In this document: positions 29,568 to 31,622 of the stretch, in pieces
Numbering within the stretch: the stretch's first letter is position 1
Layout of the letters: each line of letters opens with the position of its first letter
NCBI GenBank assembly: GCA_002472275.1
Contig: DKRQ01000019.1
Coordinates: 140,279-204,278 of the forward strand
Source of the DNA: Bacillales bacterium UBA7278
GTDB taxonomy: Bacteria > Bacillota_I > Bacilli_A > RFN20 > CAG-826
Direction of reading: 5' to 3'
DNA length: 64,000 nt
Position numbers and translations under genes: made by a program
Notes under the pieces: generated by a model
What the model was told of the DNA's origin: nothing
What the model saw: the letters and a program-made list of their open reading frames with translations, nothing else
Databases searched by the model: none

Positions 29568-29960
29568 GGTTTAGAACGTCGTTAGGATCGGGCCTTTTAT
29601 TGTGTAATCCATCAGTTGCATTAAGGGATCGTCGTAGGAAAGTCGTTTTCCTTCGTTTTCCATAGACATCCGTATAACCTATCTTGGTCTTCTTCGGTGG
29701 CGTTTCCCTGGATTCGCTTTGTGATTTTGGTGGGGATGAACAAACCCTTGGCCTTTTCGCTGACCCGCATGAACTTTTCAGAAAAGCGGCGGTGGCGGGG
29801 TTAGGGGGAAACCGCAGAAAAAGCAGAAAGAAACCAATGCGAGTGATAGGACTTGCTTTTTCCCGTAAGAGCAGGATAGAACCCGGCTTGAAAAAGAAAA
29901 TGGAGAAAGCTTTTCCGGGAATAGCCGAGTGGGAAAGGCTCTCAAGACTTGAGTTTTTCT

Positions 29961-29969
29961 GGGGGGGGG
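29961..29969 (+). repeat. poly-G homopolymer (G9)
   Basis: ggggggggg directly between -35-like TTGAGT (29949-29954) and -10-like TATCCT/TAATTG, ~55 nt upstream of lipoprotein start 30024. Confidence 0.9.
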
Positions 29970-30023
29970 TATCCTAATTGTATCTTTTTCGCGGGCGCAG
30001 CCCGCTTTGCTTTGGAGGTTTGC

Positions 30024-31622
30024 ATGAATAAAAAAGCTCTTTTGCCAATAACTGCAGCCGCTCTTTTGGCCTTGGCTTCTTGTGGGGGCACCCCTTCTAC
30101 GGACCAGTCTTCCAATTCAGGAGTTGACCCTGCCGGTAGTAGTGGCATTTCCTCTTCGGGAGACGCTTCTTCGGCTTCTTCGGGCGATCCTTCCCCCTCG
30201 CAATCCTCCGATTCTCAAATGGATGAGGGCTTTGAGGAATGGAAAAAGAGCGCTGATGCCGCCGACTATAACGGGGATGGGCAAATCGATGAAAAGGATT
30301 ATGCTGTTTTCCTTTGGCTTGATAGTGACGATGCCGCCGACTATAACGGCGATAGGAAAATCAATTACGTCGACTATTCGCTCCTTCAGGACTTCAACGC
30401 TTGGAAGAAAGGCGAAGACGCAGCCGATTATAATGGCGATTCAAAGATCACTTTTGATGACTATCTCGCCTTCCGCGAATATGCCTTATGGAAAGAATCG
30501 GACAAAGCTGCCGATTTCGACGGGAATGGGGCAATCGATTATGATGACTATCTGATTTATACCCCGTTTGCGAAATGGCTCGATGGAACCGACGCTAGAG
30601 ATGTCAACGGCGATGGTACTATCGGCTACGAAGACTACATTTTGTTGAACGAGTTCAACGCATGGCGTGCCAGCGATGCCGCTCGCGACTATAACGAAGA
30701 CAGGATCATCAACTACGATGACTATCTCATCCACCTCGCTTTCGTGACTTGGAAAAATTCCGACAAGGCGATGGATATCGATAACGACCTGTCAATCACA
30801 TACGCGGATTATGTCGCCTATTTGAAATATGCCGAATGGAAAGACGGGGACGATGCCATCGACCTCAATTCCGACGGAGTAATCGACTATCAGGATTATG
30901 TGATTTTCACCAGCGAAGGCTATCAGAACTACCTGGTCTGGAAGAAATCCGAATGGGCAAAAGACTACGACGAATCTGGTTCTGTCGACGAGGCTGACTA
31001 CGAAATCTACCTTGCGTTTAGAGCGTGGCTAGAAAGCGACGCCGCCGCCGACATCAACAAAGACAGGGTAATTGATTATGCCGACTATGTCGCTAGCCTC
31101 CACCCCGAACTGACCCCATATGAGATTTGGCGTGGTTCTCATAACGCCAAAGACTATGACGGCAATGGGGAAATCAACGAAACCGACTTTGCCATCTTCA
31201 ATTTGATTGGCGATTACCGTGTTTCGCAGCTCCTTGTCGAAGGCGCAAGGCTCTATTTCGCGGATTCGAGGCTTTCGCTCAACGATGTTGCCAAACACAT
31301 CGAAGACGCGGTCATTCGCTTTGATGGAAGCCAAACCAAAGTCGAACTGAGCGGTTATTTCATCGATGCCTTGAGCCAGGCCGATAAGAAGGAAATCGAA
31401 ACCATCGCTGATTCTATTGTCATTTGCGTGGAAACGGCCACCTTAATGACGGTCACCATGAACATTCCGTTCCCGCAGGCCGGCGAACAGGGATTGCCGC
31501 TCACGCTCTACTTCAAATTGAATGAAACGCCATTGGAGTCCACGGTCAAAGTGTCCTTCCCCTATGGCGATTCAACACTGAACACTTTCGTGACATTGAC
31601 CTTGGAAAAAATCGAGCAATGA
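30024..31622 (+). CDS. lipoprotein with ~11 tandem dockerin/EF-hand-like Ca-binding repeats
   Basis: Lipobox LASCGG, GGAGGT RBS; repeats of DAADYNGDGQIDEKDY, DAADYNGDRKINYVDY, DARDVNGDGTIGYEDY etc (D.N.DG.I...DY every ~27 aa). Confidence 0.7.
   Translation: MNKKALLPITAAALLALASCGGTPSTDQSSNSGVDPAGSSGISSSGDASSASSGDPSPSQSSDSQMDEGFEEWKKSADAADYNGDGQIDEKDYAVFLWLDSDDAADYNGDRKINYVDYSLLQDFNAWKKGEDAADYNGDSKITFDDYLAFREYALWKESDKAADFDGNGAIDYDDYLIYTPFAKWLDGTDARDVNGDGTIGYEDYILLNEFNAWRASDAARDYNEDRIINYDDYLIHLAFVTWKNSDKAMDIDNDLSITYADYVAYLKYAEWKDGDDAIDLNSDGVIDYQDYVIFTSEGYQNYLVWKKSEWAKDYDESGSVDEADYEIYLAFRAWLESDAAADINKDRVIDYADYVASLHPELTPYEIWRGSHNAKDYDGNGEINETDFAIFNLIGDYRVSQLLVEGARLYFADSRLSLNDVAKHIEDAVIRFDGSQTKVELSGYFIDALSQADKKEIETIADSIVICVETATLMTVTMNIPFPQAGEQGLPLTLYFKLNETPLESTVKVSFPYGDSTLNTFVTLTLEKIEQ
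30230..31200 (+). repeat. in-frame ~81-bp tandem DNA repeats encoding the Ca-binding repeats
   Basis: Recurring gccgccgactataacgg(c/g)gat units visible at 30262, 30340, 30421 etc. Confidence 0.7.

Follow-up and report, generated by a model that had tools for sequence, protein, structure and literature searches.

We analyzed a window of 64,000 nucleotides (nt) on contig DKRQ01000019.1 of Bacillales bacterium UBA7278, an uncultured member of the rumen Bacilli, in which a run of nine G residues (G9) lies between the -35-like and -10-like boxes of a putative promoter. The promoter would drive an accessory operon encoding a lipoprotein with dockerin repeats, a protein of 206 amino acids (aa), and a lipoprotein combining leucine-rich repeats (LRR) with a solute-binding domain. 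We slightly favor the view that the tract is a slippage-prone spacer, of the type described for porA, fetA, and tp0126, on which the strength of the promoter of this 5.3-kilobase (kb) accessory operon depends. In the mechanism that we propose, the promoter TTGAGT-N-TATCCT would be of the sigma-A type, with the tract as the part of its spacer that varies. G residues would be gained or lost by slipped-strand mispairing within the run, and their number would alter the distance between the boxes and their rotational phasing, hence the strength of the promoter. Tracts of eight or nine residues (G8 and G9, spacers of 14 and 15 nt) are predicted to leave the promoter weak or off, and tracts of 11 or 12 (G11 and G12, spacers of 17 and 18 nt) to turn it on, the latter being the length found in relatives. 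So understood, the length of the tract would control the expression of the operon. An earlier note on this DNA had described the tract, its flanking boxes, and a hairpin in the leader, and all these elements are present, with coordinates that agree within 1 nt. All positions given below are those of the 64,000-nt window, and the elements of the operon are on the + strand.

The putative promoter starts with the -35-like hexamer TTGAGT (29949..29954). It is followed by a spacer of 15 nt (29955..29969), which is composed of TTTTCT (29955-29960) and of G9 (29961-29969), the candidate slippage tract. The -10-like hexamer TATCCT (29970-29975) comes next, inside the conserved GGTATCCTAA (29970..29977). 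Reading of the sequence confirmed the 15-nt spacer and the position of G9 reported earlier; the stretch between the -35 box and the tract is also there, but it has 6 nt instead of 7. A ribosome-binding site, GGAGGT (30014..30019), is read 4 nt (TTGC) before the ATG at 30024.

To compare the promoter and the leader, we used two related contigs, L001 and L048, whose neighboring proteins are ~89-94% identical to those of the window. They carry a different lipoprotein gene, and the region upstream of this gene can be aligned to the window only at CTTGAGT, at GGTATCCTAA, and at the ribosome-binding site and start codon. The two hexamers are identical in L001 and L048, the -35 box despite differing flanks. 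The ribosome-binding site of the relatives is GAGAGGT, at the same distance from the ATG, and the -10 box and the ATG are 47-48 nt apart in the three sequences (48 nt in the window). Their spacers, cgttctaagggaagaagg and tcttcttaggggagaagg, have 18 nt and are purine-rich but not homopolymeric. The tract is flanked by TTGAGT and TATCCTAA, which are both kept in L001 and L048 around an unrelated 18-nt spacer, such that, compared with the relatives, the spacer lacks 3 nt with G9 and 4 nt with G8 (see below). Since the boxes are conserved amid sequence that cannot be aligned, the promoter is a conserved one, and the G tract is within its spacer. On this comparison, the boxes and their distance to the ATG are a phylogenetic footprint of a promoter, and TTGAGT and TATCCT are probably the promoter actually in use.

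A single occurrence of the composite TTGAGT-N13-19-TATCCT was counted in the window, where 0.02 are expected. An inspection by eye for alternative -35 or -10 boxes that would result in a spacing of 16-18 nt with G9 revealed none with more than 1-2 matches. The promoter of rpsL is a perfect TTGACA-N17-TATAGT (34899-34927) and is the same in the genomes of L001 and L048. Because of this canonical promoter, the geometry of sigma-A-type promoters is applicable to this organism, and a spacer of 15 nt is off its optimum. We also scanned metagenomes with the pattern CTTGAGTNNTTCTN{3,22}GGTATCCTAA, which retrieved 12 loci, of which one is a true orthologue (L026). The remaining 11 are chance matches in an unrelated AT-rich coding family (L023-L025 and L027-L034, on contigs Ga0157357-Ga0157368 and JAAUYG010064699.1). 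They share CTTGAGTNNTTCT-N16-GGTATCCTAATAT within an apparently coding and conserved region from an unrelated organism, a resemblance that we judged coincidental.

The tract is longer than expected by chance. It is the only run of G or C of at least 8 nt in the 64 kb, and the next longest is a single C7 (7976-7982). The window has 85 such runs of length 5, six of length 6, and one of length 7, i.e., a drop of around 5-fold per additional base, and the extrapolation of this trend gives at most 0.09 runs per 64 kb with a length of at least 9. Among 22 related loci, which total 339 kb, the longest run of G or C does not exceed 6 nt. Part of this background comes from a genome scan with the neighboring M6-metalloprotease-like lipoprotein (505 aa), which identified 20 loci with at most 50% identity and also served for the taxonomic placement of the host. 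Relatives of this protein come from metagenome-assembled genomes of rumen and gut labeled Bacilli, Erysipelotrichaceae, Ca. Enteromonas, or Ca. Alloenteromonas, and none of the 20 loci has the G-tract promoter. A second homopolymer within a putative promoter of the window is a T8 (43316-43323, - strand), which straddles a promoter-like TTGTTT-N16-TAAATA located ~40 nt ahead of the start codon (ATG at 43279, - strand) of a trypsin-like protease gene.

We then compared the length of the tract across assemblies of three strains. Strain A comprises the window, the Logan contig L035 (SRR948137), which is identical to it, and the JGI contig L036 (Ga0120380_1000003). Strain B comprises the ENA contig L041, the JGI contig L042/L026, and the Logan contig L043, with ~94% DNA identity to strain A. 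Strain C is represented by contig L044. In strain A, L036 has G8 where L035 and the window have G9, and this is the sole difference across 8046 nt. In strain B, both L041 and L042/L026 have G9, with one single-nucleotide polymorphism and no indel between them over 7.5 kb, and the otherwise identical L043 terminates exactly inside the tract. Strain C has G9. Hence, in ~19 kb of comparisons between assemblies of the same strain, the only indel and the one contig end both fall within these 9 nt. This points to either real heterogeneity or technical trouble with the homopolymer, and the difference between G8 and G9 may reflect true heterogeneity of the population. We found no mention of SRR948137 or of the JGI sample identifiers in the literature, so L035 and L036 may come from one set of reads.

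The region around the tract is under constraint. Among strains A, B, and C, there are 31 variable sites in the 343 nt of 29568-29910 (~9%), including four indels of 1 nt, and none in the following 112 nt (29911-30022). Position 30023 is the one variable site in 29911-30023, and the contrast between 29568-29910 and 29911-30023 is significant (Fisher p = 0.0013). The invariance of 29911-30022 next to such a variable neighbor indicates constraint on promoter, tract, leader, and ribosome-binding site alike. The ratio of nonsynonymous to synonymous substitution rates (dN/dS) is 0.10-0.24 for the lipoprotein gene and 0.09-0.16 for the gene of the 206-aa protein, as under purifying selection, from which it follows that these genes are functional and must be expressed. 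Their expression is hard to reconcile with a permanently mis-spaced promoter. It would fit with frequent switching to longer tracts, with a residual activity of the promoter, or with read-through from upstream. The ~325 nt of non-coding DNA that precede the promoter (29568-29890) are present only in the strains with the G tract, not in L001 and L048, and in this region we found no repeat, gene remnant, other copy, or credible open reading frame. A near-palindrome, CTCAAG-A-CTTGAG (29942-29954), overlaps the -35 box within the invariant block and is perhaps an operator, although neither L001 nor L048 has it.

Several observations weigh against a switch. G9 is the assembled consensus in three strains that are separated by synonymous divergences (dS) of 0.07-0.10, and it is part of the 112-nt invariant block. 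The single deviation of ±1 is one G8, which may stem from an error of the assembler or of sequencing in a homopolymer. Of the lengths G8-G12 among which the earlier note had suggested looking for heterogeneity, the assemblies of strains A, B, and C gave this one G8 against G9 and no allele of G10-G12, with which the spacer would be near-optimal. No other short tandem repeat of the contingency type was found in a scan of the 64-kb window or in the relatives. Organisms with a strategy based on contingency repeats usually have several such loci. Read-through from the upstream LRR operon could also supply the expression of the genes. These observations might be explained if the spacer is fixed and there is no switch, i.e., if G9 is stable within a weak or activator-dependent promoter and both the G8 of L036 and the break of L043 are homopolymer artefacts. 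We regard this explanation as possible, but doubtful. It leaves unaccounted for that the two anomalies of the same-strain comparisons coincide at the tract, and that orthologous promoters differ by 3 nt in the length of their spacers exactly there. Since ~400 kb of this lineage contain no other run longer than 7 nt, it would be odd for a G9 to be neutral and stable. Furthermore, a dominant G9 with minor alleles is itself the phase-variable pattern in Treponema pallidum, where fragment analysis of tprL revealed G9 as the dominant allele and G8 and G10 as minor ones (PMC7864442).

The arrangement proposed here resembles those of Neisseria meningitidis porA and N. gonorrhoeae fetA, in which a homopolymeric tract of G or C also lies between the boxes of a surface-protein promoter. 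In porA, a tract of G9 corresponds to a spacing of 15 nt and results in no expression. The poly-C of fetA and the poly-G of porA sit between the -35 and the -10 (PMC5320596), and their length determines the spacing and, through it, the level of transcription, which is best at 17 nt (PMC5320596; PMC7864442). There are also clear differences: our host is an uncultured commensal of the rumen Bacilli and not a proteobacterial pathogen, the alleles seen in its assemblies are only G8 and G9, and the locus is apparently the only one in the DNA sampled, whereas Neisseria have dozens. The tp0126 promoter of T. pallidum has the same organization, with a poly-G between the -35 and the -10 and an optimum at 17 nt (PMC7864442), and the dominance of G9 recalls the case of tprL. 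However, T. pallidum has 17 or more tracts, with variability revealed by fragment-length analysis, whereas here the variability is a disagreement between assemblies.

The tpr genes also suggest another way in which the tract could act. At the promoters of tprE, tprG, tprJ, and tprL, tracts of eight or fewer G residues are permissive (PMC7864442), and the alleles G8 and G9 of our locus straddle this threshold. By analogy, a variable tract in our locus might act not on the spacing but on how the DNA beside the -10 box melts or bends, or on how a regulator binds. The 38 nt immediately upstream of the -35 box (29911..29948), which lack variable sites in strains A, B, and C, could be a regulator site, or perhaps an UP element. 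We find such an action improbable, because the boxes on either side of the cleanly placed tract are also conserved in relatives that have no homopolymer and because this geometry is that of porA, fetA, and tp0126.

A spacer switch would also have a parallel among the mycoplasmas. The vlp promoters of Mycoplasma hyorhinis have a poly-A in the spacer between the -35 and the -10. They would share with our locus the mechanism and the surface-lipoprotein cargo, in a lineage allied to the Mollicutes/Erysipelotrichia. They differ from it in several respects: our tract is of G and not of A, and it precedes a single operon at which we found no variation in the size of tandem repeats, whereas the vlp genes are a family of several members that switch in combination and vary in size. 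The vlp papers of Rosengarten and Wise are cited in PMC11868660.

The variation of the tract affects the annotation of the lipoprotein gene and, through it, suggests a third possibility, a translational switch. The G8 allele fuses an upstream frame, starting at 29684, to the lipoprotein, such that the gene call in L036 is of 645 aa (5163-7100), compared with 467 aa (L035, 5698-7101, starting at the internal ATG at 30219) or 532 aa with G9. Phase variation by frameshift is, in our view, hardly credible, and we rejected it since the tract does not lie in a conserved coding frame. The upstream frame is not conserved, with four single-base indels between strains A and B in 29655-29910, and its translation looks non-coding. 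The fusion would also bury the signal peptide of the lipoprotein, and in L001 and L048 the genes at this place are only ~130 nt apart. Hence, we take the call of 645 aa as an annotation artefact. In T. pallidum, the gene calls around the tract were similarly wrong until the transcription start sites were mapped (PMC7864442). The difference of one G thus changes the gene call among public assemblies (532, 467, or 645 aa), and the lipoprotein is therefore mis-annotated or missing in protein databases. As a consequence of the calls of 467 and 645 aa, the 532-aa product has no exact record in the protein collection, and a homology search with it identified only 4 distant relatives.

The earlier note had proposed that expression is additionally attenuated by a terminator-like hairpin in the leader. 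The stem-loop GCGGGC-GCA-GCCCGC (29991-30005) and the following TTTGCTTT (30006-30013) form an element (29991..30013) that resembles Rho-independent terminators in form only: the stem has six G-C pairs and a loop of 3 nt (-11.8 kcal/mol), and the T-rich tail is present, although it ends at 30013 and not at 30012. A consensus scan for terminators picked it up, and it is invariant in the three strains. Yet the tail behind the stem reads UUUGCUUU, in which the U-run is interrupted, and the hairpin starts 15 nt after TATCCT. This would leave only ~8 nt of transcript ahead of the stem, so no antiterminator, leader peptide, or competing structure is possible. In contrast to known attenuators, the leader has neither an alternative structure nor a sensing element, and it has no match in Rfam, either at the gathering score or at E <= 1. 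The hairpin itself is stable, with 9 of 200 shuffles of its 25-mer folding as well, but it is not unusual in its context: the whole leader folds no better than its shuffles (z = +0.08 and -0.20). Neither L001 nor L048 has this hairpin in its leader, and they share no structure, since the leader of L048 is unstructured (z = 0.06) and the hairpin of L001 is not kept in L048. Terminator-like matches are common locally (5 sites in 2 kb versus 2.3 expected), and the stem is not singled out by its invariance, which it shares with all of the 112-nt block. These results argue against attenuation, and a functional intrinsic terminator or attenuator that lowers or regulates the expression of the operon is unlikely. 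The stem-loop is most likely incidental or a hairpin of the 5' untranslated region that stabilizes the mRNA, the stabilizing role and the lack of any function being as likely.

The gene immediately downstream of the promoter (30024..31622) encodes the 532-aa lipoprotein, with the signal peptide MNKKALLPITAAALLALAS followed by C. Its earlier description as a lipoprotein with calcium-binding repeats is well supported: it has the lipobox LASC and, by count of the loop D-x-[DN]-x-[DNSE]-x-x-[IV]-x-x-x-D-[YF], eleven dockerin/EF-hand calcium-loop repeats with a period of ~29 aa. The Pfam profiles Dockerin_1 (E-value 3.5e-13, 50 bits for a cut-off of 22.9), EF-hand_1 (38 bits, cut-off 25.4), and EF-hand_7 (34.7 bits, cut-off 30) all match above their cut-offs. 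The gene of the 206-aa protein (31619..32239), without a match in Pfam, has a start that overlaps the stop codon of the lipoprotein gene, and the two are probably co-transcribed. The last gene of the putative operon (32265..34814) encodes an 849-aa lipoprotein with BspA-type LRR and a solute-binding domain, as identified with Pfam. The signal peptide of the first product and the presence of a second lipoprotein in the operon suggest that the product under control of the promoter is exposed at the surface. The proposal of the earlier note that expression of the lipoprotein is phase-variable stands as a good candidate, given the conserved boxes, the outlier tract, the two lengths in assemblies of one strain, and the lipobox and Pfam matches of the product.

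These genes are part of an accessory segment of ~5.3 kb (29570..34893), composed of 456 nt of intergenic DNA, the promoter, and the three genes, that is missing in many close strains. An LRR lipoprotein gene precedes it, and the rpsL promoter comes after it. Close strains have the LRR gene directly followed by rpsL in at least nine assemblies (including L037-L039, L045-L047, L049, and L051), and most members of the cluster of the LRR neighbor lack the island. The three-gene cassette was found in three strains, and L001 (5873-8436) and L048 (5047-6105) have instead a different dockerin-repeat lipoprotein of 811 aa. The flanks of the slot are 89-98% identical among strains. On these alignments, the slot between the LRR gene and rpsL is a strain-variable site. 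Its wider context comprises rpoB and rpoC upstream and rpsL, rpsG, fusA, and tuf downstream, and in this lineage several lipoprotein genes are clustered in the interval from rpoC to rpsL. A pair of overlapping HTH_3 and DUF3990 genes (24612-25908, - strand) separates rpoC from this cluster and is kept in all close strains and absent from L001. On the other side of the slot, the rpsL promoter is followed by a leader of ~90 nt with a strong hairpin, CCCGGTGGTTGATACACCGGG (34973-34993; region 34899-35019), conserved in every related strain examined. This could be a ribosomal-protein leader, without a match in Rfam at the gathering threshold.

The control of promoter strength by a homopolymeric spacer is a textbook mechanism, and what is new here is the setting: a rumen commensal, an operon for a dockerin-repeat lipoprotein within an island that varies by strain, and a tract that apparently emerged from a purine-rich spacer. 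To our knowledge, repeat-mediated phase variation has been worked out almost wholly in host-adapted pathogens, such as Neisseria, Haemophilus, Campylobacter, Helicobacter, Treponema, and Mycoplasma, and we found no literature linking it to this lineage. We tentatively suggest, as a broader and rather speculative hypothesis, that the locus is a de novo contingency locus of an Enteromonas/Erysipelotrichaceae-like rumen commensal, in which the tract arose from a purine-rich spacer like the AGGGGAGAAGG seen in relatives and stochastically switches the operon of the dockerin lipoprotein. The outcome might be a phase-variable docking to cohesin-bearing partners or to fiber surfaces, under the pressure of phages or host antibodies. 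If confirmed, the switch would extend this strategy to fiber-associated gut communities, with a dockerin-like surface lipoprotein encoded on a strain-variable island as its cargo.

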